A stretch of 64,000 nt of DNA, taken from Clostridia bacterium (GTDB lineage: Bacteria; Bacillota; Clostridia; TANB77; CAG-508). Positions within the stretch are counted from its first letter, which is position 1. Every line of letters begins with the position of its first letter. Both the position numbers and the translations under genes were made by a program. The notes beneath the pieces are model-generated. The model searched no databases. It was not told the DNA's origin and saw only the letters and a list, made by a program, of their open reading frames with translations. Positions 2,301-61,735 of the stretch are shown in pieces. Where the stretch lies: contig JAAVYV010000019.1 of NCBI GenBank assembly GCA_022791325.1, forward strand, positions 640 through 64,639, given 5' to 3'.

Positions 2301-2375
2301 AGTATAGTAAAAATCGATTTTAAATTGTAGGGGGACGAGATTAGTACTCGTCAATGTGGAAAAGCTACTTTTATT
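2301..2375. repeat. Short-form TGTAGGGG element (AAATTGTAGGGGgaCGAG..CTCGTC..TGTgGAAAAGCtACTTT)
   Basis: Near-identical architecture to 51617-51690. Both lie just downstream of a strong hairpin. Confidence 0.6.
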
Positions 2376-2424
2376 CTTTATAATGGCAAAATTAATAAAA
2401 AATATATAAAAATGTCAAAAAATG

Positions 2425-2453
2425 TTTACATTTATCAAAAAGTTGTATACAAT
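2425..2453 (+). promoter_or_regulatory. Candidate promoter TTTACA-17-TACAAT upstream of glycosyltransferase gene
   Basis: Hexamers with 17-nt spacing, about 50 nt upstream of the RBS. Confidence 0.4.
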
Positions 2454-2504
2454 AGTTCTAACTAAAAACAAAAGAAAACAAAAGCTGAAAGGAGCTATTA
2501 AAAT

Positions 2505-3797
2505 ATGAAAATATTAATGCTAACTTGGGAATATCCACCAAGAATAGTAGGAGGAATTGCAAGAGTAGTACATGACTTATCAAAAAGACTAATAAAAGAT
2601 GGTCATGAAGTAACAGTAGTAACCTATAGAGAAGGAAATACACCATATTATGAAGATGATAAAGGTGTAAAAGTATATAGAGTTGATAATTATATGATAA
2701 AAGCTAACAACTTTATAGAATGGATTATGCAATTAAACTTTAACATGGTAGCAAAGGCATCTGAAATAATTGCAAAAGAAGGCAAATTTGATGTTATACA
2801 TGCACATGACTGGTTAGTAGCAAATAGTGCAAAAACATTAAAACATGCATATGAAATACCAATAATATCAACCATACATGCAACAGAAAGTGGAAGAAAT
2901 AGTGGAATACATGATGAAACACAAAGGTATATTAATGATACAGAATGGATGCTTACATATGAATCAACAGAAGTTATAGTAAATAGTAACTTTATGAAAG
3001 GTCATGTTCAGAATCTATTTGGTTTACCATTTGACAAAATAAATGTAGTACCAAATGGAATAAATATAACTAATTTTAATGGAATAGAACGAGACTACGA
3101 ATTTAGAAGACAATATGCTTCAGATAATGAAAAAATAATATTGTATATGGGTCGCTTAGTATATGAAAAAGGAATACAACACTTAATTTCAGCCATGCCA
3201 AAAATATTAAATGGATATAATGATGCAAAACTTATAATAGCAGGAAAAGGTGGAATGTTAGAAGAGCTAAAATCACAAGCAGAGAGGATGGGAATAGGAA
3301 ATAAAGTATACTTTACAGGGTACTTAAACTCAAAGCAAGTGCAAAAAATGTACAAATGTAGTGACATAGCAGTATTTCCAAGTACATACGAGCCATTTGG
3401 AATAGTAGCATTAGAAGCAATGCTAGCAGGAGTACCTACAGTAGTATCAGATGTAGGAGGACTAAATGAAATAGTAGAGCATAAAGTAAATGGAATGAAA
3501 AGTTATGCAGGAAATTCAAACTCGGTAGCAGATTCAATATTAACATTATTATATGACCATCAATTATGTAGTAGTATTGCAAAAAATGCAAAATCAAAGG
3601 TAAAGCAAGAATATAACTGGAACAAAATAGCACAAGACACACACTTTGTATATCAAAAGGCAATATGCCAAACAATGGCAGAAAAGCAAGCAAGGCAAAT
3701 TGAGCAAGAACAAGCTCAAAAGACTAAAAAAGCTAAAAACACTGATAGTGAAATAACGAATTTGTTGGCATTTAAGTCAAAACATGCGTATGCGTAA
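2505..3797 (+). CDS. Glycosyltransferase, GT4 family (group 1)
   Basis: 430 aa. N-terminal LTWEYPPRIVGGIARVVHDL and C-terminal EPFGIVALEAMLAGVPTV motifs typical of GT4 retaining glycosyltransferases. RBS AAAGGAG. Confidence 0.8.
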   Translation: MKILMLTWEYPPRIVGGIARVVHDLSKRLIKDGHEVTVVTYREGNTPYYEDDKGVKVYRVDNYMIKANNFIEWIMQLNFNMVAKASEIIAKEGKFDVIHAHDWLVANSAKTLKHAYEIPIISTIHATESGRNSGIHDETQRYINDTEWMLTYESTEVIVNSNFMKGHVQNLFGLPFDKINVVPNGINITNFNGIERDYEFRRQYASDNEKIILYMGRLVYEKGIQHLISAMPKILNGYNDAKLIIAGKGGMLEELKSQAERMGIGNKVYFTGYLNSKQVQKMYKCSDIAVFPSTYEPFGIVALEAMLAGVPTVVSDVGGLNEIVEHKVNGMKSYAGNSNSVADSILTLLYDHQLCSSIAKNAKSKVKQEYNWNKIAQDTHFVYQKAICQTMAEKQARQIEQEQAQKTKKAKNTDSEITNLLAFKSKHAYA

Positions 3798-3842
3798 GTG
3801 CATAAATGCGTAGTGAATAATGAATAGTGAATAATTTTATAG

Positions 3843-4004
3843 ATGCAGGGGAGAGCGACGTCTGCTATCTACGTTAAAACGAATACTTAAATAAAATATG
3901 CAAGTCTAGGGAATTTTCGTAGAAAGAGCCGACGTTACACTAACTCATAACTTATCTTTTAACTCGCTATCGCTCGAAGAGTTAAGAAATAGTCGCCACT
4001 ACAA
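3843..4004. repeat. MITE/REP-like intergenic element (diverged member of the TGTAGGGG…CCTACA family)
   Basis: Shares TAGAAAGAgCcGAcG, ATAACTTATcTTTTAACTCG and AGTCGCCaCTACAAA blocks with 60832-60985 and 59501-59650. Preceded by the 21-mer GTGAATAATGAATAGTGAATA, also found at 61713. Confidence 0.55.
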
Positions 4005-4031
4005 ATAAATTAATATAAAAATACGAAAGGA

Positions 4032-4376
4032 TTGATAATAATGAACGTTTATGATACAGCAAACAAATTAGCAGGAGAAATAAAGAGTTCAGAAGAATAT
4101 AAACAATACAGAGAAGCAAAACAAAAAATAGATAATAATCCAGAACTAAAACAAAAAATAGATGAATTCGAAAAATTAAGATATGATGTACAAGTATTAG
4201 CTATTCAAGGAAAAGAAGCAGGAGAGGAAAAGAACAAAAAGCTTCAAGAAATGTATGCAATACTAATAGGGGAAAAAGAAATAAAAGAATATTTTGATTT
4301 AGAAGTAAAATTCAATGTAATGATAGCAGATGTAAATAAAATAATAGCAGAAGCAGTACAAGATGTACTACTATAA
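4032..4376 (+). CDS. YlbF/YmcA family (UPF0342) regulatory protein
   Basis: 114 aa. MNVYDTANKLAGEIKSSEEYKQYREAK... matches the YlbF family N-terminus in length and character. Confidence 0.6.
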   Translation: MIIMNVYDTANKLAGEIKSSEEYKQYREAKQKIDNNPELKQKIDEFEKLRYDVQVLAIQGKEAGEEKNKKLQEMYAILIGEKEIKEYFDLEVKFNVMIADVNKIIAEAVQDVLL

Positions 4377-4467
4377 ATGTCGAAAAAAGTCACAAAAAGT
4401 AAAATTGTGGCTTTTTGTTTTGAAGTTGGAAGTTGGAAAGCAAAAGTTAAAAATAGAAAAATAGATT

Positions 4468-4566
4468 GTAGGGGTCGCTGCCTTCGGCGACCCAATTCTA
4501 GAAATATATTCTGTTTTGATATAATAAGATGTATTTGCGGGTCGCCGAAGGCGGCGACCCCTACAA
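4468..4566. repeat. TGTAGGGG-family element (two GC-rich hairpins in inverted orientation)
   Basis: TGTAGGGGTCGCTGCCTTCGGCGACCC ... GCGGGTCGCCGAAGGCGGCGACCCCTACA. Confidence 0.7.
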
Positions 4567-4621
4567 TACATATTAAGATAATTAAACAGTTTAATATATA
4601 AATAAAAAAAGGAGGAAGAAT

Positions 4622-5341
4622 ATGGAACACATATTTATTTTAATAGGATGTATAACAACAATAGCAATATTATATTTTGCACTAGGAGTTAATATAAAAA
4701 AAATAAAAGAATCAGCCCAAAATGAAAAATTAGATGAATTAGTAAGTAAATTCCCAGAAAATGAAGAAATATGTAGAAGCATTTTAAAAAAACTAAAAAA
4801 TGAAAAAGTTACAATAAAACAAAATGAAGACAAAGAAAATAAAACAAGCCTATATGTAGCAATTTCAAACACTATATTTATAGCAAATATAAAAGATACA
4901 TATACTAGAATTCAAACAATAGCACATGAATGTATACACTCTACTCAAAGCAAGCGAATGCTACTTTTTAATTTTTACTATTCAAACATCTACTTACTAT
5001 ATTTTGTTATTTCAATAATACTTACAATATGTAAGGTTTTCACAAACTATAACTTACAAATAATAATTTTGTTGCTAATGGGTGTAATATACTATATAAT
5101 TAGGTCATTTCTAGAAACAGATGCAATGACAAGAGCAAAATATATAGCAGAAGATTACATGAAAGAATATATAAAAGAAAATGAAATAGCTAACATAGAA
5201 GAAATAATAGAACTTACCAATACATATGATAAAATTAATAAAATAGGTATACCAGCATATAATTTTTTATTAATAAATAGTAGTATTATAAAAGTAATAA
5301 TATATACCTTAATTGTTATAGTAATAAGTTTTTTTAGTTAG
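4622..5341 (+). CDS. Membrane protein with HExxH zinc-metallopeptidase-like motif
   Basis: 239 aa with several predicted TM segments. HECIH motif between TM1 and TM2. Confidence 0.4.
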   Translation: MEHIFILIGCITTIAILYFALGVNIKKIKESAQNEKLDELVSKFPENEEICRSILKKLKNEKVTIKQNEDKENKTSLYVAISNTIFIANIKDTYTRIQTIAHECIHSTQSKRMLLFNFYYSNIYLLYFVISIILTICKVFTNYNLQIIILLLMGVIYYIIRSFLETDAMTRAKYIAEDYMKEYIKENEIANIEEIIELTNTYDKINKIGIPAYNFLLINSSIIKVIIYTLIVIVISFFS

Positions 5342-5427
5342 AAGTATTGAAAAATAAAGCAAAAAATGTTACAATATTTACATAATTTGACATACTAATT
5401 ACAACTAATAATTTAGGAGGTAAGAAA

Positions 5428-6114
5428 ATGAAGAAAGTAGAAGATATGCTAGAAAGAGTTACACAGTGGTTACGGCAAGAAGATAGGATACCAAAAATAG
5501 TATGTTATACAATGCTTATACTATTTGAGGTGGCATTAATTTTAGAAACAATAATACTACTACCTAATTATATTATAGCAACTATAGGAACTTATATAAT
5601 AATAAGACTATTAGTTTTTTGCAAACAAAAAGTAATTTTTAAGAAATTTAACAAGAAGTTAATGGAAATTCCAAAATGTACAATGATAATATTTTTTATA
5701 TTAACAATAGCTACTTTTGTAATGGCACATTATACTTTTATAGCGGTAATACTAGTAGCAATTCAAGCTATTATATATCAGAATTTTAAAAATAGTATTA
5801 AGCTAAAAATACAAGAAAGTATAAAGTTAGTAGATGAAAACCTTAAAGAAAACTTTTATAAAAGGGTATATGCCAGATATTTACCATGGAATACAGAAAA
5901 AATTGCTAATTACAAAATAGAAACATTCAATTTTTATGCAATTAAAGAAGGGCAGAATGTAGTAATTTGTTACCCAACTAGACCATATTTAATAGAGAAA
6001 AATAATACAGTGCCTAAAAAATACTTAACAGAAAAAAACTCTTGTATAGAAAAAAGTATAAAAAAAGAGGATTTTACAAAATATTTTTCTTTAGAAAAGC
6101 AAGAGCATAAATAA
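5428..6114 (+). CDS. Hypothetical membrane protein
   Basis: 228 aa with a GGAGG RBS and four hydrophobic helices. Confidence 0.4.
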   Translation: MKKVEDMLERVTQWLRQEDRIPKIVCYTMLILFEVALILETIILLPNYIIATIGTYIIIRLLVFCKQKVIFKKFNKKLMEIPKCTMIIFFILTIATFVMAHYTFIAVILVAIQAIIYQNFKNSIKLKIQESIKLVDENLKENFYKRVYARYLPWNTEKIANYKIETFNFYAIKEGQNVVICYPTRPYLIEKNNTVPKKYLTEKNSCIEKSIKKEDFTKYFSLEKQEHK

Positions 6115-6212
6115 ATTGAATATTAAAGTGATTTTTATTATACCTATATACCACAAGCTATTTTATGGGGAGAGTATTATAGGATAAGAAATGAAACAAA
6201 TTATCTGTAAAT

Positions 6213-6277
6213 AAAGGGAATGTAAAAAAAGGAAAGTTTTGAACGTGTTCCAAAACTTTCCTTTTTACATTCCCTTT
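6213..6277. terminator. Long convergent hairpin (about 30-bp stem) between the 5428 gene (+) and the Lon-like gene (-)
   Basis: AAAGGGAATGTAAAAAAAGGAAAGTTTTG-loop-CAAAACTTTCCTTTTTACATTCCCTTT. Loop carries the TTTTGAACGTGTTCCAAAA motif. Confidence 0.6.
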
Positions 6278-6283
6278 GACTTT

Positions 6284-8687
6284 TTACAAATCTTTGCTAA
6301 AACTAGCATATTTCTTGAGTTTCTCTTGTACCAAATAATTTATAGAACCAGCAGGGAATTTGCCATTTGCATCTTTTTTACCAGCAGGTACTCCTGTTAA
6401 TATTTCGATACCTTCATCAATTGTAGAAATAGCATAAATATGAAATTTACCATTTTTTACATCTTCAATTATTTCATCAGAAAGGCTCAAATTGTTAACA
6501 TTCTGAATAGGAATTATAACACCATTAGAACCATCTAAACCACGTAATTTACAAACTTGGTAAAAACCTTCTATTTTATCATTAACTCCACCAATAGGTT
6601 GTATTTCGCCTTTTTGATTTACAGATCCAGTTACAGCTAAAGTTTGATTAATTGGTATTCCAGACAAACTTGAAAGTATGGCATATAACTCTGTACTTGA
6701 AGCACTATCACCATCTACACCATTATATAATTGTTCAAAACATATACTTGCTGTAAGGGATAGAGGAATTTCTTGTGCAAACATTTCACCTAAATAACCA
6801 CTTAAAATTAACACCCCTTTTGAATGTGAAGAACCTGAAAGTTCAACTTCTCTTTCTATATTTACAACACCAGTTTTGCCGTAAATATGTGTTAGCAGTT
6901 ATTTTTACAGGTTTTCCAAAAGTATAATCTCCAATTGTCATTATTGTTAAACCATTAATTTGACCTTTTCTTGCTCCTTTAGTATCAATTAAAAGAGTAT
7001 TTTGCTCAATCATTTCCATATACCTAGAATCATATTTTTTAACTCTTTCTACTCTTTGTTTTAAAGCAATATCAATATATTCTGATGTTACTACTTTTTT
7101 TCTATCCATTTTAGCCCAAGTGGCAGCTTCACCAATAACTTGGCCAATATCAGTAAACCTTGTAGATATTTTATCTCTGTCATCAGCAATTTTTGAGGCA
7201 TATTCTACAACTTTAGCAACAGCACCTCTATCTAAATGCGGAAGTTCTTCTTGCTCACAAAAACCATGAATAAATTTTGCAAGTTTATTTACATTTTCAG
7301 TTGTAATAGGAGCATTTTCTTCAAATTCAACTTTTATTTTAAATAGTTTTCTAAAATCACTATCCATAGCTAAAAGTGTTTGATAAATTTGATCATTTCC
7401 GACAACTAAAACTTTAACATCTAATGGAATAGGTTCAGGTTTTAAAGAAACCATAACCATTGAAGAACGTTGGTCTGCTGTATTTTCTATAGAAATTTCC
7501 TTAATACGAAGAGCTTTTTTTAATGCTTCATAACAAATTCCATTTGCAATTAGGTCTTTAGCTTGAAATATAATGTATCCACCATTTGCAATATGAAGAA
7601 GACCAGGCTTTAACATAGTATAATCAGTTTTTAAAGCACCATAATAATTTTCGTATTCTAATTTGCCAAATATATTGTGGTAAGAATAGTTAGAGTCCAT
7701 AATAACTGGAGCACCTTCTAAATTACTATTATCTACAAATAAATTAACACGGTAGTTAAGCCATGGTTTAGGAGGCTCTTTAGCAGGACCTTGAGTAGAA
7801 CCTGATGGAACTTCTTCACCTACAAAAATTGAAATATTTTTTAATATATCTTGTTTAACATCTGTAAGGAATTTATTAATTTTTTTATTTCTTTTATATT
7901 TATTTTTTATATAGTTAATATGTGAGTTAACAGTAAGTAGGGCAATGTTTGCTTGCCATTCTTCAATTTTTTTATCAGAAGCTCTTTCAATTTCTTTTAT
8001 CTTACCAATAGCTTCCATTACTTGCTCTTGAACAATTACAGATTTTTCTTCAAATTGTTTTTTTATAGTATCATCTAATTTTTCAAATTCTTCCTCTTCA
8101 ATTGTTTTACCATCAATAATAGGCATCATATAAATACCATTTTGAGCAGATTTAACTTGGAAACCATGTTTTTCAGACTCTTCATTTAATTTATCTAATA
8201 GGTATGACCTTTTTTCTTCAAATTCCTGTTTAATTAAAGTTTTCTCTTTTTCAAAATCATCATTATTAAAAGTATTTTTAATATCCTTGCGAATATCTTT
8301 AATAAATAAATTCATATTTTCTTCAAACTCTTTACCTTGACCTGCTGGAAGAGAAACTGCAATAGGTTCATTAGGGTTTTCAAAATTATAAATATAACAC
8401 CAGTCAGAAGGAACTTTTTTCTTTTTAGAAATTTTATCTAAATAGTTTTTGGCATACATAGTTTTACCAACACCACTAGGCCCCTCTAAATAAATGTTAT
8501 AACCTTTAACATCTACATTAACGCCAAACTCTAAAGCTTTAATACCTCTATCTTGACCAATACCAGAGTCAATACCTTCAAGCTCAGAAGTATCTTCAAA
8601 TTTAAATACATCTGGGTTACATATCCTTTTTAAATCTTTATAAGATAATTCATTTTTTTTCATTTGTTTTTTCTCCTTTAATTTCAT
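6284..8687 (-). CDS. Lon-like ATP-dependent protease (COG1067/LonB-type: AAA+ ATPase plus S16 peptidase), interrupted by an apparent +1 frameshift at about 6881
   Basis: N-terminal Walker A GPSGVGKT. C-terminal S16 catalytic region (DGDSASS, KGEIQPIGGVNDKIEG). The two ORFs (614 and 176 aa) join perfectly when one C (gene strand TTA[C]GGC) is removed, giving ...[39 protein letters not shown]. Confidence 0.75.
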
Positions 8688-8710
8688 ATATTAATTCAAT
8701 GTATTTACAT

Positions 8711-8790
8711 TGTAGGGGTCGCCGCCATCGGCGACCCGCATATTATTACTGTATCATAATACATCAAAATTTGATATAATCGCCCCTACA
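8711..8790. repeat. TGTAGGGG-family element in the Lon-like/rimI intergenic region
   Basis: TGTAGGGGTCGCCGCCATCGGCGACCC...AATCGCCCCTACA. Confidence 0.65.
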
Positions 8791-10468: not shown

Positions 10469-10828
10469 ATGGATAAAAATAGTACAAATGAACTTACAAT
10501 AGTAAGGTTAAGTATAATAGATAGAATTAAAAATTTCTTCAAAAAATTATTTTCTAAAAAAGAGAAAGTAGAAAATGTAGAAGTGCAAGAAAATAAAAAG
10601 GAAAACACTTTTATTAATAATGTAAAAATACAAGCAGATGATGAAGAAAAAAGACTATTAAAACTACAAGCATTAATCGCAGATGATATAGTAACAGAAG
10701 AAGAACTACCAGAAGAAGATGTAAAAGCCTTACATAGACTATATGATAGGCAAATATTGCAATTGAAAAAAGAGATAGATGATTATAGAGAAAGAATATT
10801 AAAATTAAGAATGAATATAAGTGAGTAA
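10469..10828 (+). CDS. Hypothetical coiled-coil protein
   Basis: 119-aa Glu/Lys-rich ORF. Followed by hairpin terminator 10898-10929. Confidence 0.35.
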   Translation: MDKNSTNELTIVRLSIIDRIKNFFKKLFSKKEKVENVEVQENKKENTFINNVKIQADDEEKRLLKLQALIADDIVTEEELPEEDVKALHRLYDRQILQLKKEIDDYRERILKLRMNISE

Positions 10829-10897: not shown

Positions 10898-10929
10898 GCA
10901 AAAGTCGTTTGACTTTTGCAATTTTTTAT
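10898..10929 (+). terminator. Rho-independent terminator after 10469-10828 ORF
   Basis: GCAAAAGTC-GTTT-GACTTTTGC followed by AATTTTTTA. A second 49-nt hairpin (10928-10976) follows. Confidence 0.55.
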
Positions 10930-11060
10930 CTTCTTAGGAAAGTCATCCGCGATAGCGGTGAGTTTCCTAAGAAGATAGTTATGGAAGAATTAGATTTTCT
11001 TAGCGAAGAATGAGCTTAGAAAATTTTATTCTTGTTTTTTATTGTATAGTGTTATACATA

Positions 11061-11485: not shown

Positions 11486-11655
11486 ATAAAAACTCCTTAC
11501 TAATTGATAATATCATTTTATAACAATTAAGAATATTTGTAAATAATTAAAAAGAAATACTTTATAAAGACTTGAAAAATTATGTTAAATATAGTATTAT
11601 ATTATTATTAAAAATTTAATATAGCAAATTATAAACAACAAAAGGAGGAAGCAAG

Positions 11656-12138
11656 ATGGAACAAATTATTAAAATGGCACAAAATGTTTATGAAAGACGG
11701 ATTTCAAAAACAATGGAACTAAAAGAACAAGAAAATGCAGAAAAAAATGCAGAAGAGGAAAGAATAGGAAAAGAGGCAAAAGAATTAGGAAAATTAGTGA
11801 TAAGACTCTTTGGAGCTTCTAATAAAGAAGAAGGAGATTATCGCATAAGCAATATTATGTTGCGTAAATCAAACCAAACTTGTAATATACTTTGTACAGT
11901 CAGATTTGAAAAAGACAAATATGAAGTACCACAATATAAAGGGTATATGGAACTGATAAATTTACCATATATTTCAAAGGCTATTGATAAAATAAATAAC
12001 CAAAAGTATGATGCAAAGGTACTATATGAAACTATGAATATTATTAGTGAAATAGAAAATTATTATATTTCTGGCTGGAGCGAAGGTGATTATAAAGCTT
12101 CTGAGAAATGTGCAGAATTAGTTACTTTTGCAATGTAA
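11656..12138 (+). CDS. Hypothetical protein
   Basis: 160-aa ORF with RBS AAAGGAGG. Followed by terminator hairpin 12181-12207. Confidence 0.4.
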   Translation: MEQIIKMAQNVYERRISKTMELKEQENAEKNAEEERIGKEAKELGKLVIRLFGASNKEEGDYRISNIMLRKSNQTCNILCTVRFEKDKYEVPQYKGYMELINLPYISKAIDKINNQKYDAKVLYETMNIISEIENYYISGWSEGDYKASEKCAELVTFAM

Positions 12139-12180
12139 ATTATAATTTGCTAAAAATAACGAACAATGTAGTTAGAAACA

Positions 12181-12207
12181 AAAAGCGGAGAAATCTTCGC
12201 TTTTTGT
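12181..12207 (+). terminator. Rho-independent terminator
   Basis: AAAGCGGAGAAATCTTCGCTTTTTG. Confidence 0.5.
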
Positions 12208-12394
12208 TTGTTTATTAAATGTCAATGGGGACTGAGCTTTTTGACAATTTTGTTAACTTAATATGGTATATAAAACTTATACTGGATACTTGACTATTGG
12301 ATGTATAACCAATATAATGAAAATAACAAAAATGAAAGTTGTAACATAAATTTATACAAAGTAACAAATAATAAAGAAATAGGAGGAACAAAAG

Positions 12395-14100: not shown

Positions 14101-16521
14101 ATGTTTAAAATATTAAAAAATCTAAAAAAGTCAGCATTATCAGTTGCAATAATCGTATTACTTTTATGTGTGCAAGCATGGGCAGATTTAACTCTTCCAG
14201 ACTATACCTCTAAAATAGTTAATGTGGGTATACAACAGGGGGGAATTGAAAATTCTGTACCTGAGGCAATTCGCAAAAGCCAAATGAATAAACTTCTAAT
14301 TTTTACAAAAGATGATGAAAATATTTTAAGTAAATATATATTAATTTCAAAGAATTCTTTAGAGGAAAAAGAATTTAATAAGTATGTGAAAAAATATCCA
14401 GCGCTAGAAAGTGAAGATTTATACATAATAAATGAATTAAGTAAAGACGAACTAAATGAGTTAGGAACATTAATGGCAAAGCCACTTATGATTCTTTCAA
14501 ATGTAACAAATGAGCAAACTGCGGAGAAAATAAAAGAACAGTTAATAAATACTATGCAAGGGATGCAAGAATACAATGGTGAACAAGTAGAAAATATAAG
14601 CGGGTCGCCGATGGCGGCGACCCCTACAATGGGAACAAATAGAGAAGAGCAAACTGGGGCAGAAAATGGTATAGAGCAAATAGCACAAGAAATAAATGGA
14701 GATAATCTACCAATTCCGCCAGCAATAATGAATCAAATGAGCCTATTAGAACTATTAGGTGCAATGCCACAAGACCAGTTTGATGTTATGTTCGAAAAGA
14801 TAGAAGAAAGCCTAAATGGAATGAATGATTCAATTTTAGCACAAGCAGCAATAAATAGCGTAAAAGAAGAATACAAAGCTATAGGAATAAATACAGATAA
14901 AATTCAAAATGGATATATTTTTGTGTCAGGTCTTCAAATGCTAGGAATTGCATTAATTAGTATGATATCAGCAATTGTAATTATGCTATTATCTTCTAGA
15001 GTAGCAGCTAATTTAGGAAGAACTTTAAGAGATAAAGTATTCAAAAAAGTAATGAATTTCTCTACAAAAGAATTTAGAGAGTTTTCAACAGCGTCATTAA
15101 TAACAAGAAGTACAAACGATATTCAACAAATACAAGGTTTAATTTCTATGCTATTTAGAGTAGTTGTATATGCACCAATTATAGGAGTAGGTGGCTTTTT
15201 AAGAGTACTTGCTAACAGTGATACATCTATGGCATGGATTATAGGTTTTGCTATTTTATGTGTTATAGGAGTTGTATTAACACTATTTACAGTAGCAATG
15301 CCAAAATTTAAAATATTACAAGAATTAGTAGATAAACTAAACTTAGTATCAAGAGAAATATTAACGGGTCTTCCAGTAATAAGAGCATTTAATACAAGTA
15401 AAAGAGAAGAAGAACGTTTTGATAAATCGAATACAGACCTAATGAAAGCAAACATATTTGTAAACCGAGCCATGAGTATAATGATGCCAGCATTAATGTT
15501 TGTAATGAACTCTATAATGCTACTTATAATATGGGTAGGAGGCCACAAAGTTGATGAAGGTATAATGCAAGTTGGAGACATGATGGCATTTATACAATAT
15601 ACAATGCAAATAGTAATGAGTTTCCTAATGATTTCAATGATATCAATTATGCTACCACGTGCAGCAGTATCAGCAAAACGTATTAATGAAGTATTAGAAA
15701 AAGACTTAAGCATAGCTAATAAAGAAAAAATAAAAAGATTTAAAGAAGATAAAAAAGGTTTAGTAGAATTTAAAAATGTATGTTTCAGATATCCAGATGC
15801 AGATGAAGAAATGCTAACAGATATAAACTTTACAGCAAAAACAGGTGAAACAACAGCAATAATAGGAAGTACAGGAAGCGGAAAGTCAACAATAGTAAAC
15901 TTACTACCACGTTTTTATGATGTAACCAGAGGAGAACTTCTAATAGATGGCACAAACATAAAGGATGTACCTATAAAAGAACTAAGGAAAAAAATAGGTT
16001 TTGTACCTCAAAAAGGAATACTATTTTCAGGAACAATAAAATCAAACATAAAATATGGAAATCCTGAAATGAGTGACGAAGATATGATAAAAGCAGTTAA
16101 AATAGCACAAGCAGAAGAATTTATTTTAGCAAAAGAAGAAAAATACGACTCTCCTATTGCACAAGGAGGAAATAATGTATCAGGAGGTCAAAAACAACGT
16201 TTATCAATAGCAAGAGCAATTGCAATATCACCAGAAATATTAGTATTTGACGATAGTTTTTCAGCATTAGACTTAAAAACAGACAAGGCACTAAGGGACG
16301 CTTTAGCAAAAGAAGTAAAAGGGAAAACAGTAATAATAGTAGCACAGCGTATTAGTACAATAATGAATGCAGAGCAAATAGTAGTATTAGAAGAAGGAAA
16401 AGTAGTAGGAAAAGGAACACATGAAGAATTAATGAAAACATGTGAAACATATAAACAAATAGCAATTTCACAATTATCAGAAGAAGAACTAAATGGAAAT
16501 AACAGTAAGGAGGTGGACTAA
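14101..16521 (+). CDS. ABC transporter ATP-binding/permease subunit (type I exporter, heterodimer partner) with an unusually long extracytoplasmic insertion between TM1 and TM2
   Basis: 806 aa. Walker A GSTGSGKST, signature VSGGQKQRLSIARA, Walker B ILVFDDSFSALD. About 220 extra residues after TM1, containing an in-frame copy of the GGGTCGCCG..CGACCCCTACA repeat (14600-14628). Confidence 0.85.
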   Translation: MFKILKNLKKSALSVAIIVLLLCVQAWADLTLPDYTSKIVNVGIQQGGIENSVPEAIRKSQMNKLLIFTKDDENILSKYILISKNSLEEKEFNKYVKKYPALESEDLYIINELSKDELNELGTLMAKPLMILSNVTNEQTAEKIKEQLINTMQGMQEYNGEQVENISGSPMAATPTMGTNREEQTGAENGIEQIAQEINGDNLPIPPAIMNQMSLLELLGAMPQDQFDVMFEKIEESLNGMNDSILAQAAINSVKEEYKAIGINTDKIQNGYIFVSGLQMLGIALISMISAIVIMLLSSRVAANLGRTLRDKVFKKVMNFSTKEFREFSTASLITRSTNDIQQIQGLISMLFRVVVYAPIIGVGGFLRVLANSDTSMAWIIGFAILCVIGVVLTLFTVAMPKFKILQELVDKLNLVSREILTGLPVIRAFNTSKREEERFDKSNTDLMKANIFVNRAMSIMMPALMFVMNSIMLLIIWVGGHKVDEGIMQVGDMMAFIQYTMQIVMSFLMISMISIMLPRAAVSAKRINEVLEKDLSIANKEKIKRFKEDKKGLVEFKNVCFRYPDADEEMLTDINFTAKTGETTAIIGSTGSGKSTIVNLLPRFYDVTRGELLIDGTNIKDVPIKELRKKIGFVPQKGILFSGTIKSNIKYGNPEMSDEDMIKAVKIAQAEEFILAKEEKYDSPIAQGGNNVSGGQKQRLSIARAIAISPEILVFDDSFSALDLKTDKALRDALAKEVKGKTVIIVAQRISTIMNAEQIVVLEEGKVVGKGTHEELMKTCETYKQIAISQLSEEELNGNNSKEVD
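14600..14628 (+). repeat. Half-element of the TGTAGGGG family embedded in-frame in the ABC transporter CDS
   Basis: GCGGGTCGCCGATGGCGGCGACCCCTACA differs by one base from 4537-4565. Translated as SGSPMAATPTM in the long extracytoplasmic insertion. Confidence 0.7.
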
Positions 16522-45129: not shown

Positions 45130-46914
45130 ATGGAAAAAGTAGGTAAGTTAGTTGTAAGTGTTCTTTCAGTAGTATTAATGTGCGCACTATATTGGTTATG
45201 GCTTCCGCCATTATCAATTGCATATGCCAGCGGTTTTCTATTCATAGGTTTATGTGTAATTATACTAATATCCAATATTGCCATGTGGGTTTCTGACTTT
45301 GGAATAGCGGGTGTTATAGCCTTTTTAGGATTTGCAATTTTACTAATTTTATGGATAGGGGGAGCCTTTTTTGGAAGTTCTGTATTCAATGCAACAGTAA
45401 AACAGCAACAAATTGGAGAAGTAGAAAAAGTAGAATATTCAGAAATGATAAAACAGATAGACACTTCTCAAATTCCAATTGTAGACGAAGCATTGGCAAA
45501 GAAGCAAGCTGACAAGAAGATTGGCGAAGATATTGCCTTAGGGTCTAGAGTATACTTAGGAAATGCAGCAATTCAGGAGGTAAATGGAGAAATTATGTAT
45601 GTAGTACCTCTTGAGCATTCTGGATATTTCAAATGGAATAAGAATAGAACCATACCAGGCTATATTACAGTTTCTGCTTCAAACCCCAACAAAGTAAATT
45701 TTATAACAGAGTTAGATGGCGAAAAGATTAATATTCGTTACCAGAAGTCAGCTTATTTTAGCTATGACTTAACACGCCATATAAGGAATCAAGGATTTAA
45801 AAACGTTGGATTAACAGAGTATACACTTGAAATTAATGACTCTGGACGTCCATATTGGGTAGTAACAACATATGAAAATAAAACAATATTTGGAACCGAA
45901 GAGGCAACTGGAGTGGTAGTAGTAGATGCACAAACAGGTGAAACAAGCTGGTATTCAGTAGAAGATACGCCAGATTGGGTAGATATTATTCAGCCACAGG
46001 CATTTATTGAAAACCAAATAGACAATTGGGGAAAACTGATACACGGTTTTGGGAATACTATATTTGGAAACACAGAAATGACAAAGAAAACAGATCTTAT
46101 ATTAACTGTGTATGTAGAAGGAGATTGCTACTATTTCACAGGAATGACGAGTGTAGGAACAGATGAATCTAGTGTAGGTTTCATTATGGTAAATACCCGA
46201 AACAAATATGCACAAATAGCATATTTAAATGGTGCAACAGAAAGTGCAGCAATGAAATCGGCAGAAGGATTGGTATCAGACTTTGGTTATACATCGACAG
46301 AGCCATTACCATTAAATATTAATGGAATTCCTACATATGTTATGGGACTTAAAGATCAAGAAGGGCTATTAAAAGCATATGCAATGGTAAATATTGAGAA
46401 TTATAGTATAGCAGCCAAAGGAGCTAGTTTGTCTGAGGCAAACAGAGCATATATCCAAGCAGTTGCAAGAAATAGTACTACACATGTAGTAGCTTCCGAT
46501 GAAGCATATGGATATACTTATAAAGGCAAAGTTCAGCGGATCTCAAATGTAGTAGAAGACGGCTCAACTTACTATTATTTGGTAGTAGAAGGAGAAGAAG
46601 AGAAAATCTTCACAGCTTCGTATATGGTTTCAGAAGAACTGGCAGTTACTCGTGATGGTGATACTGTAAAAATTACTTATGTAGATGACAAAAATGGGAC
46701 AGTAGACATCGTAACATTTGATAATGTTGCATTTGCTACCCCTGTTTCCGAAGCACAGGAAAAACGAAATGAACTCGATGAAGGTACTTCAGCATATGAT
46801 GCAGAAGATAGCCAAATGATTGAAGTAAATCCTGATGTAACTGAAGACACCTGGAACAGCCTTTCAGATGAAGAAAAGGCGAAGATATTACAGGAGTATC
46901 AGAATAATAATTAA
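45130..46914 (+). CDS. Membrane-anchored protein with large extracytoplasmic domain
   Basis: 594 aa. Three N-terminal TM helices, then a soluble region. Terminator 46926-46958. Confidence 0.45.
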   Translation: MEKVGKLVVSVLSVVLMCALYWLWLPPLSIAYASGFLFIGLCVIILISNIAMWVSDFGIAGVIAFLGFAILLILWIGGAFFGSSVFNATVKQQQIGEVEKVEYSEMIKQIDTSQIPIVDEALAKKQADKKIGEDIALGSRVYLGNAAIQEVNGEIMYVVPLEHSGYFKWNKNRTIPGYITVSASNPNKVNFITELDGEKINIRYQKSAYFSYDLTRHIRNQGFKNVGLTEYTLEINDSGRPYWVVTTYENKTIFGTEEATGVVVVDAQTGETSWYSVEDTPDWVDIIQPQAFIENQIDNWGKLIHGFGNTIFGNTEMTKKTDLILTVYVEGDCYYFTGMTSVGTDESSVGFIMVNTRNKYAQIAYLNGATESAAMKSAEGLVSDFGYTSTEPLPLNINGIPTYVMGLKDQEGLLKAYAMVNIENYSIAAKGASLSEANRAYIQAVARNSTTHVVASDEAYGYTYKGKVQRISNVVEDGSTYYYLVVEGEEEKIFTASYMVSEELAVTRDGDTVKITYVDDKNGTVDIVTFDNVAFATPVSEAQEKRNELDEGTSAYDAEDSQMIEVNPDVTEDTWNSLSDEEKAKILQEYQNNN

Positions 46915-51616: not shown

Positions 51617-51690
51617 AATATAAAAAATCTAATTTTAAATTGTAGGGGCGAGCGTCGCTCGTCCGTGTAGCAAAGCCACTTTCTTATTGT
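51617..51690. repeat. Short-form TGTAGGGG element downstream of helicase terminator
   Basis: AAATTGTAGGGGCGAGCGTCGCTCGTCCGTGTAGCAAAGCCACTTT; paralogue of 2301-2375. Confidence 0.6.
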
Positions 51691-55270: not shown

Positions 55271-55294
55271 ATACCAAAATGTAATAATAATTTT

Positions 55295-56195: not shown

Positions 56196-56299
56196 AAAAG
56201 TAAAGATTTGGTAAAGATTTGGGACGTGTCAAAAACTTTACAACTCTTTCGAAATCTTTCTAAAAAGAAATAAGAACCTATAATACAAGGAGGAAAAAT

Positions 56300-56692: not shown

Positions 56693-56709
56693 ATAAAAGG
56701 AAGAGTAAA

Positions 56710-57264: not shown

Positions 57265-57326
57265 AAGTTTTTATTATGAGTGAATATATAAGAATTTAAT
57301 AAATACAAATATTTAATAATCATTTT

Positions 57327-57366
57327 ACAATCTGTGTTATAAAAAAATAGCACAGATTGTTTTTTG
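57327..57366 (+). terminator. Rho-independent terminator (CAATCTGTG…CACAGATTG module)
   Basis: ACAATCTGTGTTATAAAAAAATAGCACAGATTGTTTTTTG. Confidence 0.6.
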
Positions 57367-57465
57367 ACTTTTACTATATAATTAGTAAATGACCTTATTA
57401 GGGAATAAATTTCCATTGAAAATCAAAAAGAAAAATGTTAACATAAGCTTAAAGGATGTGGTGTT

Positions 57466-58704
57466 TTGAGAATATTAAAAAAGTATGGTAATAATTTATT
57501 ACTTAAAGAACTAAAAGGAAGTTACAAATTTTTTATTAAAGAAAGTAAATTAAATGAGAACAGCAAAGGATATGGGCTAATTAGAGATAAGGACATGTAT
57601 GCAAACAATATTGCAAGTATTGCATCTGTTGGATATGGACTTGCAGCATTGGTAATAGGAGTAGAACGAAAATGGATTAGTCATGAAAAGGCATATAAAA
57701 GAGCAAATAAAACCTTAGATACATTTTTAAACCATGTAGATGGAAAAAATGGCTTTTACTACCATTTTGTAAATATGGATACAGCAAAAAGAGAATGGAA
57801 TTGTGAAATATCAATAATAGATACTGCAATTTTCATATGTGGAGCAATATGTGCAGGAGAATTTTTTGAAGGAGAAGTTAAACAAAAAGCAGAAGAACTG
57901 TATAAAAGAATTAATTGGGAGTGGTATAGAAATAAAGAAACTAATTATTTTTATATGGGGTATAAACCAGAAGAAGGCTTTTGGGGGCATTGGGATATGT
58001 ATGCAGAACAACTAATGTTATATGTACTTGGAGCAGGCTCACCAACATTTCCTATAAACAAAACAATGTATGATGATATGAGAAAAGAAAAGGAAAGTTA
58101 TGAAGGAATAGAAGATATTATTTATACATATTGCGGAACATTATTTACATATCAGTTTTCACATGCATGGATAGATTTTAGAAATAAAGTAGATAAGCAA
58201 GGAATTAACTGGTTTGAAAACTCTATAAAAGCTACTATTGCAAATAGAGAATATTGTATAAAAAATAGTAAAAAATTTAAAACGTTTGGAAAAAATTCAT
58301 GGGGGTTAACTGCATGTGTTGGACCAAAAGGATACAGTGGTGGATATGGAGCAAAACCAAGTTTAGCTGACTTAGATAAAGAAAATGATGGAACAATATC
58401 TCCTTGTGGAAGCGCAGGCTCAATAGTTTTTACACCAGAACTAAGTATAAAAGCATTAGAAAATTTTTATAATAATTACCCAAAACTATGGTGCAAATAT
58501 GGTTTCAAAGATGCCTATAATTTAGAAAATGGAGAGTGGTATTCAAAAGAAGTAATAGGAATAGATAAAGGAATATCAATGCTAATGATAGAAAATTATT
58601 TGACAGGAACAATATGGGAATACTTTATGAAAAATGAGAATATACAAAAAGGGTTAAATATTTTAGGAATAAAAAACAACGAAAAGCAATATGAAAAGAT
58701 ATAG
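57466..58704 (+). CDS. Putative glycoside-hydrolase-like protein ((alpha/alpha)6-barrel-type, DUF3131-like)
   Basis: 412 aa, TTG start. Weak family assignment from size and Trp/Tyr-rich composition only. Confidence 0.35.
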   Translation: MRILKKYGNNLLLKELKGSYKFFIKESKLNENSKGYGLIRDKDMYANNIASIASVGYGLAALVIGVERKWISHEKAYKRANKTLDTFLNHVDGKNGFYYHFVNMDTAKREWNCEISIIDTAIFICGAICAGEFFEGEVKQKAEELYKRINWEWYRNKETNYFYMGYKPEEGFWGHWDMYAEQLMLYVLGAGSPTFPINKTMYDDMRKEKESYEGIEDIIYTYCGTLFTYQFSHAWIDFRNKVDKQGINWFENSIKATIANREYCIKNSKKFKTFGKNSWGLTACVGPKGYSGGYGAKPSLADLDKENDGTISPCGSAGSIVFTPELSIKALENFYNNYPKLWCKYGFKDAYNLENGEWYSKEVIGIDKGISMLMIENYLTGTIWEYFMKNENIQKGLNILGIKNNEKQYEKI

Positions 58705-58726
58705 TTAGGGGTAAGTTTATGAAAGA

Positions 58727-58780
58727 TAGAGAAATTATAGAGCTACTAAATAAAATGACTGTAGATGAAAAATAGGACAA
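58727..58780 (+). pseudogene. Remnant of a GH3 beta-glucosidase N-terminus
   Basis: MKDREIIELLNKMTVDEK* matches the GH3 N-terminal signature (…MTLEEKIGQ). A +2 frame continues IGQM… then stops. Only about 30 codons remain. Confidence 0.35.
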
Positions 58781-58874
58781 ATGGTGCAAAAAGCAAATAG
58801 TTAGCCTTGCTAATTATTTGCTTTTATGCTAATATAAATATGAAATAAGTATATAGTGAAAGGAAGAAAAAACT

Positions 58875-59471
58875 TTGAAAAATATAAAAATAACAAGAAA
58901 AATAACACAAGGAATGTATGTACTAACAACAAAAGAAGGAGGCTGTATAGTAGATGCAGTATCACAAGTAAGTGCAGGGGATGAACCATTAATATCAGTA
59001 GCTGTAATGAAAAGCAACTATACAAACGAATTATTAAAGAAAAATAATAAATTTTCATTATCAATATTAAGTAAAGATGTAAATCCAGAAATAATAAAAA
59101 CTTTTGGTTTCAACACTGGAAGAAAAATAAATAAATTTGAAAATACCAAAACAACCAAAATAGAAGAAATAGATGTTATAAATGACTCTATAGGATATAT
59201 GGTATGTGAAATAGTTGACTTTATAGAAAATGATACACATACACTATTTATAGGAAAAGTAATAGAAGCAGATGTATTTGAAGAAAAAGAGCCAATGAGT
59301 TATGGGTACTACCAAGAACATAAAGAAGAGCTATTAAAAGTTACAACGCAAAAAGGAAAAACAGCATGGGTATGCTCAGTATGTGGATACATATATTATG
59401 CAGAAGAATTACCAGAAGACTTTAGGTGCCCTATATGTAAGGTAGGAAAAGAGTATTTTAAAAAGCAATAA
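58875..59471 (+). CDS. High-molecular-weight rubredoxin (flavin-reductase domain fused to C-terminal rubredoxin domain, Hrb-like)
   Basis: 198 aa. Flavin reductase-like N-domain, C-terminal WVCSVCGYIY...FRCPICKVGKEYF rubredoxin fold. Confidence 0.7.
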   Translation: MKNIKITRKITQGMYVLTTKEGGCIVDAVSQVSAGDEPLISVAVMKSNYTNELLKKNNKFSLSILSKDVNPEIIKTFGFNTGRKINKFENTKTTKIEEIDVINDSIGYMVCEIVDFIENDTHTLFIGKVIEADVFEEKEPMSYGYYQEHKEELLKVTTQKGKTAWVCSVCGYIYYAEELPEDFRCPICKVGKEYFKKQ

Positions 59472-59500
59472 TTGAATTACGCATAATGAATGAAAAATAT

Positions 59501-59650
59501 TGTAGGAAAGATTAGCAATTGACTATGGATACAAAGAGTTGCTATAAAACAATATTTAAGTAAAATCTTCGAAGAGCTGGCGATTAAGCTAACGAATAGC
59601 TTATTTGTAACTTGCTTTACTCCAAAAGCTAAGAAATAATCGCTCCTACA
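59501..59650. repeat. MITE/REP-like element (TGTAGGAAAG … AATCGCTCCTACA)
   Basis: Shares the CTTCGAAGAG core and right-end blocks with 3843-4004 and 60832-60985. Confidence 0.6.
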
Positions 59651-59902
59651 AAATAATTATTATTTATATGATTATTTAATTAATAGAAAAATTAAGAGAG
59701 AGGTATTAAAAATGAACGAGAAATTTCAAGAATACTTAAGCAAATTAACATGTAGAGGGTGTTATAATCACTGCCCATTAAATAGTCCTAATTGTGGTAG
59801 AAGTAAAATTTTTATAAAAGAGGCAGAAGAGAAATTTGAAAAAGAAATGAAGAAATCTAAGGAATAAAACTTGTAAAATAAAAAGAAAGTTGGAAAACCT
59901 AT

Positions 59903-60818
59903 ATGGAAGAAATAATAAATATACCAGAATTTTTAAAAGAAATGCTAAATAAGCAATATGGAGAAGAATTAACAAAAAAAATAATAGAAGGGTACAAAAA
60001 TAAAAGACCAGTTACTTTTAGAGTAAACACTTTGAAAACAAATATAGCAGAAATAGAAAATAAATTAAAAGAAAAACAAATTGAATTTGAAAATGTACCA
60101 TGGAGCAAAGAAGCATTTATAATAAAAAATAGCACTGAAAAAGAAATACAAAATATGCAAATGTATATAAATGGAGAAATATATCTTCAAAGTCTATCAT
60201 CAATGCTACCACCAATTATATTAAACCCACAGGCAAATAATGATATATTAGATATGGCAGCAGCACCAGGAGGAAAAACAACACAAATTGCAACACTAAC
60301 ACAAAATAAGGCCCATATTACAGCGTGTGAAATGAACAACATTAGAATAGAAAGGCTAAAATATAATATAGAAAAACAAGGAGCAACCTCAGTATATATA
60401 ATGCAAACAGATAGTAGAATAATTAATGACTTTTTTTCATTTGACCAAATTCTATTAGATGCACCATGTTCACGGAAGTGGAACTCTAAATATTAATAAT
60501 GCAAAAATAGAAAAAAATTTTACAAAAAAATTGATAGAAAAAGTAACCACTTCCCAATTGCAATTATTAAAAAAAGCAATAAAATTATTAAAGCCAGGTC
60601 ATGAAATGGTATATTCAACATGTTCAATACTTTCATGTGAAAACGAAGAAATATTAGAAAAAGCTTTAAAAGGAACTAATACTAAAATACTACCAATTAA
60701 ATTTGAAGCAATAGAAGAATTACCATTATTGCCAACAAAAATAGAAGGAACACTTTGTGTGAAACCTACCCAAAAATATGAAGGTTTCTTTATTGCAAAA
60801 ATATATAAAGAAATTTAG
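59903..60818 (+). CDS. RsmB/RsmF (NOL1/NOP2/Sun) family RNA m5C methyltransferase, with an apparent +1 frameshift at 60473
   Basis: SAM motif DMAAAPGGKT. Removing the C in TCA[C]GGAAG restores the family-defining DAPCSGSGT motif and joins it to the downstream ORF (...VYSTCS...). Confidence 0.75.
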
Positions 60819-60831
60819 GAAATAATTCTTT

Positions 60832-60985
60832 TGTAGGGGCGATTTTAATCGCCCGCAAGCTACAACACATACTAAAAAAATATTTATTTAAGCAATTTCA
60901 TAGAAAGAACGAGTGATTATACTAAAGTATAACTTATTTCTAACTCGTTGTTGCCCAAAGATCTAAGAAAAAATCGCCTCAAAGA
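60832..60985. repeat. MITE/REP-like element (TGTAGGGGCGATTTTAATCGCCCG … AAATCGCCTCAAAG)
   Basis: Left terminus identical in type to 26259/37214. Internal blocks shared with 3843 and 59501. Confidence 0.65.
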
Positions 60986-60991
60986 TTTAAT

Positions 60992-61426
60992 TTACAAATA
61001 TTTTTTTAAAGTTTCAACACTATCTTCTTGCATAACAACAAAATCATTTAAAACATCTTTTACATCTTTAGGAGCATTAGGGTTTTGATTCATAAGTCTT
61101 CTACCCTCAATAATTCCCATATTAGTTCCTTGCATTAATAGCTCAGAAAGTTTGGAAGTAGTATCATCATTCATAGTTTTCATTTGAATTCCATACCAAG
61201 TCATAGCTTTATTCATAGCATTTGTTTCGTGAGGGTCTTTGTTACTATAATTTGAATATATATCATTAACTCTATTAGATATCTTTTTATATTTATTATA
61301 TTCGATATCTAAAACTTCTTTAAAAGTATCATCTTTTACTTTATCGGAAACAAAAGAAATAGCATCCATTCCCATAGTAGCACCTTTATTAACTTCATCT
61401 AAAATATTCAAATTTTGATTTTCCAT
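60992..61426 (-). CDS. Hypothetical protein (four-helix-bundle-like)
   Basis: 144-aa ORF with RBS on the minus strand. Confidence 0.4.
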   Translation of the reverse strand: MENQNLNILDEVNKGATMGMDAISFVSDKVKDDTFKEVLDIEYNKYKKISNRVNDIYSNYSNKDPHETNAMNKAMTWYGIQMKTMNDDTTSKLSELLMQGTNMGIIEGRRLMNQNPNAPKDVKDVLNDFVVMQEDSVETLKKYL

Positions 61427-61619
61427 TTAAAATCACATTCCTTTCAAAATATAAAATTTATAATATTAATATAACCAAAAATATAAAAATAAAACGAAAA
61501 ACTTTTGACAAATAGAAAGAAATGTGCTAATATAGAAAAGTGGCAAATGGAAACGAACATTATTATAAAATAATGCTTAACGAACAACACATTTTTATTG
61601 TGTTGTATTTTTGTGCTAA

Positions 61620-61735
61620 TTAGAAGTTGGAGGTTGGAATATTTGGGTAAGTTCTTCGGAGAAATTACTTAAAATCTAACTTCTAACTTCCAACGTCTAC
61701 AAAACTAAAAGTGAATAATGAATAGTGAATAGTAC
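61620..61735. repeat. Related intergenic element with inverted TTAGAAGTTGGAGGTTGG/CCAACGTC...CTAACTTCTAA arms plus the 21-mer GTGAATAATGAATAGTGAATA
   Basis: Internal TTCTTCGGAGAAATTAC matches the TTCTTCGAAGAAATTAC core of 26259-26388. The 21-mer is also found at 3815. Confidence 0.5.

Follow-up and report, generated by a model that had tools for sequence, protein, structure and literature searches.

A 64,000-nucleotide stretch of DNA from a Clostridia bacterium (assembly GCA_022791325.1, contig JAAVYV010000019.1, positions 640 to 64,639; hereafter the window) carries a family of short GC-rich repeats. These are probably GTAG-tagged repetitive extragenic palindromes (REPs), many of them in head-out pairs resembling REPINs, of the type that belongs to TnpA_REP subclass 2.4, here in AT-rich Clostridia (probability about 0.78). 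Subclass 2.4 corresponds to group 4 of the tyrosine transposases associated with REPs (RAYTs) (Bertels et al. 2017, PMC5581495) and has the signature NH[IFV]H, WQ and YIxNNP (Quentin et al. 2018, PMC6006769). The combination of a one-sided GTAG foot, a covarying GC-rich stem and head-out doublets is diagnostic of GTAG-REPs and REPINs. It supports the proposal, made in an initial annotation, of a non-autonomous family like REPs or miniature inverted-repeat transposable elements (MITEs) with recognition of the TnpA(REP) type.

In every intact unit, T-GTAG leads straight into a stem-loop with GGG at its start and CCC at its end, often with GC after it. Subclass 2.4 REPs are defined by a GT[AG]G foot and a stem bottom of three G-C pairs ('canonical long') or by a 'double foot' (PMC6006769), and all intact units of the window read GTAG-GGG...CCC. 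The TGTAGGG head is the sole part common to all copies. At least four stem classes are present in the window: GGGCGATT-AGT-AATCGCCC, GGGTCGCCG-CCWT-CGGCGACCC, GGGCGAGC-GTC-GCTCGTCC (with one G-T pair) and GACGAG-ATTAGTA-CTCGTC. Stem changes between copies compensate each other and complementarity is kept; thus, it is the foot and the ability to pair that are conserved, not the stem sequence. The intact GC-stem units have stems of 7 to 9 bp, loops of 2 to 4 nt and folding energies of -10.7 to -19.6 kcal/mol. The foot is clearly one-sided, as TGTAG stands on exactly one side of nine of the ten perfect GC-rich hairpins in the window. The tenth, at 24232, has no foot and resembles an ordinary terminator. 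Perfect GC-rich hairpins directly follow GTAG nine times, compared with none after ten control tetramers of the same composition.

It is extremely improbable that these sites form no family and are instead unrelated GC-rich hairpins or terminators, alike only by chance against an AT-rich background. The stems do differ and some listed copies are very degenerate. However, the 8-mer TGTAGGGG or its complement CCCCTACA occurs exactly at 13 sites in the 64 kb, the 10-mer TGTAGGGGCG, with no more than 1 mismatch, has 10 occurrences where shuffles predict 0.32, the foot is one-sided, and an identical 23-mer is present in at least about 55 other genomes; chance likeness of unrelated hairpins was ruled out on these grounds. 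Copies are therefore not confined to the window, nor is their similarity limited to generic hairpins, since internal blocks are common to copies in the alignment. The internal blocks and termini named in the initial annotation are confirmed: CTTCGAAGA occurs three times, ATTTATTTAAGCAATTTC twice and ATAACTTATTTCTAACTCG-like blocks three times, and the palindromic terminus GGGCGATTAGTAATCGCCC is found at 26259/26388 and 37214/37319.

At least 12 copies had been claimed. All 12 coordinates hold something, but only 11 belong to one repeat family, with 13 intact heads; the element at 61620 has neither GTAG head nor GC hairpin (Table 1), although it lies next to a REP in another genome (L009). Copies 3843, 59501 and 38028 are degenerate, as are the right halves of 8711 and 60832. 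Together, the elements take up 1.7% of the window, whose GC content is 25 to 36% throughout and about 29% overall. The GC content of 55 to 60% first given for the repeats roughly fits most hairpin termini (54 to 74%, one 48%) but not entire elements (31 to 54%). The AT-rich motif (A)ATGAATAGTGAATAATGAATAGTGAATA adjoins several REPs (window positions 3810-3835, 59485-59495 and 61705-61730, and locus L111); it is also found beside a tRNA in strain contig L132 (2735-2760).

Table 1. Repeat copies and a related palindrome in the 64,000-nt window
Feature	Position	Strand	Sequence and structure	Context
Single REP	2326..2375	+	TGTAGGGG-GACGAG..CTCGTC, then small second hairpin GTGGAAAAGCTAC and T-run	Right edge of strain-variable island
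Long degenerate head-out doublet	3843..4003		Heads TGCAGGGG, TGTAGTGG; extra module of ~50 nt in right REP loop	GT4 glycosyltransferase/ylbF spacer
Intact head-out doublet, REPIN-like	4467..4565		Stems GGGTCGC(T/C)G..CGGCGACCC; fold z -11.5	Spacer between ylbF and ORF 4622-5341
Doublet	8711..8790		Left REP intact (8711-8739), right half-decayed (..TAATCGCCCCTACA)	Spacer between rimI stop and Lon-like start, both genes on - strand
Single REP	14602..14628	-		In frame within ABC exporter gene 14101-16521
Intact head-out doublet	26259..26388		Arms TGTAGGGGCGATTAGTAATCGCCCG; fold z -10.2	Downstream of DUF2975 gene
Intact head-out doublet	37214..37319		Arms 100% complementary over 35 nt; fold z -9.9	accB/fabZ spacer
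Single REP, slightly decayed	38018..38040	-	GGGCAATTAAAATCGCCCCTACA	fabZ/accC spacer
Single REP	51641..51690	+	Stem GGGCGAGC..GCTCGTCC, one G-T pair; second hairpin GTAGCAAAGCCAC	Directly after terminator of HrpA-like helicase gene
Long degenerate doublet	59501..59650		Heads TGTAGGAA, TGTAGGAG; internal modules as in 3843 and 60832	
Long element	60832..60990		Left REP intact (60832-60857), right end decayed	Spacer between rsmB-like gene and convergent ORF
Related palindrome without REP ends	61620..61700		Arms AGAAGTTGGAGGTTGGAA / CTAACTTCTAACTTCCAAC; core TTCTTCGRAGAAATTAC in common with 26259 spacer	

The copies come in three arrangements: singlets (2326, 14628, 38040 and 51641), head-out inverted pairs of 80 to 130 nt (4467-4565, 8711-8790, 26259-26388 and 37214-37319) and long degenerate pairs. 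As single-stranded DNA, the intact pairs fold into one long hairpin (-35.6 to -38.5 kcal/mol, z -9.9 to -11.5). The layout that characterizes REPINs (two inverted REPs with a spacer, forming a long hairpin) is found at 4467-4565, 26259-26388 and 37214-37319. Alignment shows that the long copies 3843, 59501 and 60832 are ordinary doublets in which the loop of the right-hand hairpin contains an extra module of about 50 nt, and singlets 2326 and 51641 have a second small hairpin, GT(G/A)GnAAAGCyAC, followed by a T-run. Near-identical doublets of 104 nt are present in sister metagenome-assembled genomes (MAGs). In the sister MAGs CAMUHU and CAOKMR, of 27% GC (L011, L016, L095, L098, L103, L108 and L118), the 104-nt doublet lies inside a longer unit, of about 230 nt, which has inverted ends of its own (AAATTkGkGTTTGTGGGGATGAT...) and occurs in at least seven near-identical copies. 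This unit with its nested doublet is a composite and apparently young MITE.

Relatives of the window REP are widespread. The 23-mer TGTAGGGGCGATTANTAATCGCCC was scanned for in one genome per species, and the matches listed amount to at least 118 blocks from at least about 55 assemblies. Among these, the exact 23-mer is found under four phylum-level labels (Clostridia, the candidate phyla radiation (CPR), Omnitrophota and Alphaproteobacteria) in blocks of 25 to 68% GC; although MAG labels are open to error, the spread is clearly broad. The majority come from MAGs of gut Clostridia (Faecousia, Oscillospiraceae, Christensenellaceae and 'Clostridium sp.' of 27% GC), Acetobacterium tundrae is also represented, and the CPR labels are Peribacteria, Absconditabacterales and Gracilibacteria. 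In 852 kb from the matches listed, 227 perfect GC hairpins, of about 30 stem classes, directly follow GTAG, compared with 0 to 10 following controls. Many of the matches lie less than 100 nt from contig ends, which fits a dispersed repeat. The idea that phages or plasmids carry the element was rejected, as the 37214 doublet had no blastn match in plasmid and phage collections and a pattern scan of IMG/VR gave one match in 2.9 million contigs. A literature search for the sequence strings returned only primer matches.

The link to a Y1/HUH TnpA(REP), which the initial annotation had suggested might lie elsewhere in the genome, is supported in other genomes, where the same 23-mer flanks or sits within RAYT-like genes. 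Six blocks among the 118 matches listed contain an open reading frame (ORF) with the motif ..WQRSFYDH(I/V)IR... These ORFs match NCBIfam NF047646 (REP_Tyr_transpos, REP-associated tyrosine transposase) at E values of 2e-17 and 4e-16, below the curated cutoff. Against Pfam Y1_Tnp, with its cutoff of 23 bits, the ORF of L007 passes (28 bits) and that of L109 falls short (19.8 bits). A profile of 30 members of the RAYT clade matches E. coli TnpA_REP (PDB 4ER8; E 1.3e-7) across the HUH and Tyr regions; single-sequence phmmer searches against PDB sequences gave no match. The RAYT-like family has thousands of members, named RayT or REP-associated tyrosine transposase by their sources.

The hairpin, or a close variant, stands directly after the stop codon of the RAYT-like gene and/or in frame between its HUH and Tyr motifs. 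Such loci are found in Omnitrophota (L109), in the CPR (L083 and L084, whose RAYT genes were read with TGA as Gly), in an Oscillospiraceae MAG (L007), and at L043 and L143, the latter in a genome of 50% GC. RAYT genes bearing the REP show the motifs NH(L/I/V)H, WQ and YIxNNP, and the peptide VGAINNRPY within RAYT is encoded by the hairpin sequence GTAGGGGCGATTAATAATCGCCCCTAC. Across 230 homologues, the loop between HUH and Tyr is hypervariable and reads like translated GTAG hairpins. Eighty independent metagenomic RAYT loci (318 kb) contain 218 GC hairpins after GTAG, compared with 3 to 11 for controls, and at least one GTAG-led GC hairpin is present in 74 of the 80. Since REPs inserted in frame in tnpA_REP have been described for subclass 2.4 (PMC6006769), REPs within RAYT genes are a rediscovery; both the kind of element and its link to RAYTs were already published. 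At L007, the RAYT gene (5288-6052) lies between rimI and tsaD, and one window doublet lies just downstream of rimI, which may be a coincidence.

The window repeats resemble the super-family of GTAG-tagged REPs (Di Nocera, De Gregorio & Rocco 2013, PMC3733652; REPs of Nunvar et al.), in which palindromes of 20 to 40 bp have an unpaired GTAG at one end only, stems fall into sub-families with compensating changes, and most units form head-head (GTAG-outside) dimers 20 to 100 bp apart. Those REPs, too, are found chiefly in the gaps of co-directional or convergent gene pairs, and a few copies sit in frame within genes. The window repeats differ in that their host has about 29% GC, so that the elements are GC islands, and in that several copies have nested modules; a bipartite 'REP + GTGGCnnnGCCAC' layout recurs in other genomes (L015, L139 and L141). 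Likeness to subclass 2.4/RAYT group 4 REPs is seen in the foot placed directly on a stem bottom of three G-C pairs, in 'double-foot' variants in related genomes and, in other genomes, in REPs that flank RAYT genes or sit in frame within them. By contrast, subclass 2.4 was described as common in Cyanobacteria and Bacteroidetes and sporadic in other groups (PMC6006769), and in the Clostridia species studied here no RAYT gene was found in the DNA searched; the main text of the GTAG-REP survey has no mention of Firmicutes or Clostridia (PMC3733652).

The REPINs known from Pseudomonas and Enterobacteria (Bertels & Rainey 2011, PMC3116915), which belong to RAYT groups 2 and 3, likewise consist of an inverted REP pair with a spacer in one long hairpin, and singlets resemble decayed remnants. 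In contrast to those REPINs, no large near-identical population was seen here, the window spacers differ strongly and the doublets have 6-nt flanking direct repeats. The E. coli REP system, with its bacterial interspersed mosaic elements (BIMEs) and TnpA_REP, has GTAG at the 5' foot of the hairpin and an enzyme of a related family (the 4ER8 match); its REPs differ in their longer, bulged stems, belong to subclass 2.2 and are unrelated in sequence. Ton-Hoang and co-workers are said to have described, in 2012, E. coli TnpA_REP (4ER8) with GTAG as a guide tetranucleotide at the foot of the REP hairpin. The Rickettsia palindromic elements (RPEs) may offer a further parallel, being palindromic repeats that can lie in frame in genes of an AT-rich genome without destroying the proteins. 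They are about 100 to 150 bp long, are not known to be GTAG-tagged GC hairpins and are unrelated in sequence, and only one of the 11 loci in the window is intragenic.

Several observations weigh against identification of the repeats as RAYT-dependent REPs and REPINs. No RAYT-like ORF was detected, by regular expression or by a hidden Markov model (HMM), in the 64-kb window, the additional strain DNA or the fetched loci of sister species; the RAYT HMM was built from 120 homologues and applied to the six-frame translation of all loci and the window. A search with an artificial RAYT probe that bears VGAISNRPY, the peptide of the window REP, recovered only CPR and other RAYTs, and ranking of RAYT matches by AT-rich amino-acid usage gave no candidate for the window species. 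In E. coli, there are strains in which RAYT has been lost while REPs persist (PMC3733652, PMC6006769). The spacers of the type-A doublets 26259 and 37214 are far more diverged than their identical arms; thus, replication as whole REPIN units is not demonstrated. In 20 same-species contigs from independent assemblies, 99.1 to 100% identical to the window over the main aligned segments, there was no presence/absence polymorphism at the seven REP loci covered, and the 37214 doublet is kept in 10 of 10 strain contigs. Finally, six window doublets have imperfect 6-nt direct repeats at their flanks (TATAGA/AATAAA, ATAGAT/ATACAT, TTACAT/TAACAT, TTTTGA/TCTTAA, TTATAA/TTATAA and AAATAT/AAATAA), with 29 identities out of 36. 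Random pairs of AT-rich positions gave 13.1 ± 2.8 identities, none of 20000 reaching 29, and flanks of different copies match at 2.6 of 6 positions. In 38 doublets from other genomes there was no such signal (1.5 compared with 1.7 of 6).

Target duplication is unexpected for transposition of the RAYT/IS200 type, and a small probability is therefore left on a MITE of DDE type or on an unusual route of insertion. A conventional MITE would mean that the elements are deletion derivatives of an insertion sequence (IS) with a DDE transposase, having terminal inverted repeats (TIRs) of about 25 bp (TGTAGGGGCG..), moving by cut-and-paste and leaving a target-site duplication of 6 bp. The terminal inverted repeats and common internal modules of full-length copies, the flanking repeats of the six doublets and the nesting of the doublet in the ~230-nt unit of sister genomes would suit such an element. 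It is nevertheless very unlikely to be the explanation, as every 'TIR' forms a hairpin of its own, with a constant GTAG foot and a stem that varies from copy to copy, which fits recognition of a hairpin rather than of a DDE end. In addition, one-footed singlets are common, the flanking-repeat signal is missing in the 38 doublets elsewhere and plasmid or phage collections gave no match. Beside the motif, the sole transposase-like genes detected are Y1 RAYT-like; the screens were specific to such ORFs, DDE transposases were not searched for and 20 ORFs of the window were annotated. As the flanking repeats rest on six old copies, nothing is built on them.

Two unusual histories were considered together and are doubtful. 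Either the doublets of this lineage insert as units with a 6-bp target duplication, unlike the duplication-free single-strand 'peel-and-paste' route assumed for RAYT/IS200 enzymes, or the RAYT-REP system was transferred between phyla and then persisted in these Clostridia without its transposase. Among the matches listed, the REP hairpin GGGGCGATTAnTAATCGCCCC is identical, base for base, across the four phylum-level labels and from 25 to 68% GC. This identity may reflect repeated transfer of the subclass 2.4 RAYT-REP system between phyla.

Location in the window bears on whether the repeats serve the host. The organism has SpoIVB-like, YlbF and Coat_F genes; its sporulation genes, and the NCBI label 'MAG: Clostridia bacterium' on an identical ABC protein, point to Clostridia and not to Fusobacterium. 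Spacers, mostly of co-directional genes, hold 10 of the 11 loci (for example accB-fabZ, fabZ-accC, rimI-lon, glycosyltransferase-ylbF and ylbF-next ORF). The intergenic location first proposed holds for these 10 but not for the copy at 14600, which lies in frame in the gene for an ABC exporter of 806 amino acids. There it encodes SGSPMAATPT, within the extracytoplasmic loop after the first transmembrane helix. The two copies assigned to the fab operon are indeed in spacers of the fab/acc operon, and the 8711 copy is beside the Lon-like gene, as had been noted.

Selection by the host would provide another explanation, in which the repeats act in cis as signals in RNA or DNA (to stabilise, process or attenuate mRNA, or to bind a nucleoid or topoisomerase protein) and spread because they are useful, any mobility being incidental. 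Ten of the 11 loci, between genes of co-directional operons, would be transcribed, the seven loci covered are fixed in the 20 strain contigs, the REP arms are much better conserved than the spacers and one stem contains a G-T pair. Such roles in mRNA and DNA signalling have also been reported for E. coli REPs (background in PMC3733652). Even so, this explanation is unlikely. With respect to transcription the units point either way, one copy interrupts a coding region, sister species have no REP or a different element at orthologous sites, and no part of the window matched Rfam at the gathering score. At E ≤ 1, over 33.9 to 40.95 kb, only spurious sub-threshold matches resembling miRNA precursors were obtained, to the 37214 hairpin. 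No tRNA or tmRNA was found in the window. Intrinsic terminators were considered and rejected, since none of the repeat hairpins is a canonical terminator (GC hairpin and U-run) on the transcribed strand; the only two calls, 8716(+) and 14623(-), have weak T-tails and lie on the non-transcribed strand.

Sister lineages, in which the ABC protein is 88 to 93% identical, show that the repeats come and go at orthologous sites, although their spacers are too diverged for exact insertion boundaries to be drawn. The rimI-lon spacer is 144 nt with its doublet in the window, 28 nt in L141 and L225 and of unrelated sequence in L226. The REP in the ABC exporter loop is absent from orthologues of 785 to 801 amino acids, and P0122 and P0127 have it in a decaying state. 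One REP in L139 and three in L141 lie downstream of the ABC pair, where the window has no intact REP. The doublets downstream of ylbF and of the DUF2975 gene have no counterpart in L226, which has a different hairpin element at the latter site. The REP family turns over on a between-species scale, with no sign of current activity.

If the repeats are GTAG-tagged REPs, the window hairpins would be the recognition element of Y1/HUH REP-associated tyrosine transposases of subclass 2.4/RAYT group 4. By analogy with work on TnpA_REP and IS200/IS605, a Y1 HUH enzyme would recognize the hairpin through its GTAG guide on single-stranded DNA, cleave it and rejoin it, and copies would have spread in trans on single-stranded DNA by means of such an enzyme. 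The longer forms may have arisen through nesting of other short modules. The copies in the window would now be fixed and slowly decaying passengers of operon spacers, transcribed as stable hairpins; any effect on mRNA processing or stability would be secondary.

Other repeated and variable sequences lie near the REPs. Upstream of the 2326 REP there is a near-perfect, GC-rich inverted repeat (2130-2293, and 1-2380) with arms of 74 nt that are 97% complementary, at which many assemblies break. Strain contig L132 has a tRNA gene and about 150 nt in place of the whole left segment; in L129, the upstream DNA contains resolvase, ORF6N and HTH genes. The region resembles the border of an integrated element that varies between strains. 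A segment of some 125 nt (10919-11042, and 10587-10654, 10972-11011) is 90 to 98% identical to L018 of another species and, inverted, 80% identical in L225, with small indels on both sides in strain contig L131; this segment could represent one more small element, either mobile or conserved non-coding. Strain polymorphism without relation to REPs is seen at 46184-46255, a 70-nt segment of ORF 45130-46914 missing from L119 and L122, and at 11546-12241, about 695 nt with ORF 11656-12138, missing from L130.

In the fab/acc operon, tandem units of 42 to 45 nt (GTAGCATTGGGGACGGTTCGTAATCGGAAACAAGryAGArrA) are found at 34096-34307, 35022-35233, 36497-36747 and 40295-40400, inside repeated modules of about 200 nt ahead of fabG, fabF, accB and accA. 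Their number differs by one in strain contig L120, and Rfam gave no match to them. A role as repeated regulatory or leader modules of the operon is conceivable. The fabZ/accC spacer contains a second structured element (37845-37955), a long AT-rich stem around a GC-rich core, in a region (37800-38045) with an RNA fold z of -5.5. A copy 92% identical to it is present in L078 and another, 87.5% identical, in sister contig L226 (20070-20192), at the site of the 26259 doublet of the window. As this copy takes the place of a REP doublet, the element represents a second mobile hairpin family. Two repeat pairs, 24597-24686/25523-25612 (84%) and 28688-28746/58790-58848 (81%), each comprise a terminator-like hairpin and downstream AT-rich sequence.

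Some genes in the window are split into two ORFs: the Lon-like gene (6284-8687), accD and accA (39456-40320, 40875-41689) and the rsmB-like gene (59903-60818). The Lon-like gene encodes 606 and 166 amino acids in the window species and an intact protein of 793 to 794 amino acids in sister species; in the rsmB-like methyltransferase, the frameshift falls within the LLDAPCSGSGT motif. Independent assemblies, which do not cover the rsmB region, show the splits of lon, accD and accA again; these three are therefore probably real pseudogenes or cases of recoding, not sequencing errors.

A REP/REPIN population is thus documented in AT-rich uncultured gut Clostridia, a group that does not appear in the main text of the REP surveys checked. 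The gain is incremental unless the 6-nt flanking repeats or the cross-phylum identity prove meaningful. Given their REP/REPIN nature, GC islands in such MAGs should not be annotated as small RNAs, terminators or regulatory sites. The repeats also help to explain contig breaks in MAG assemblies and, as sister species differ at orthologous sites, the elements are markers of strains or species. The in-frame copy in the ABC exporter loop indicates that a protein can tolerate such an insertion.

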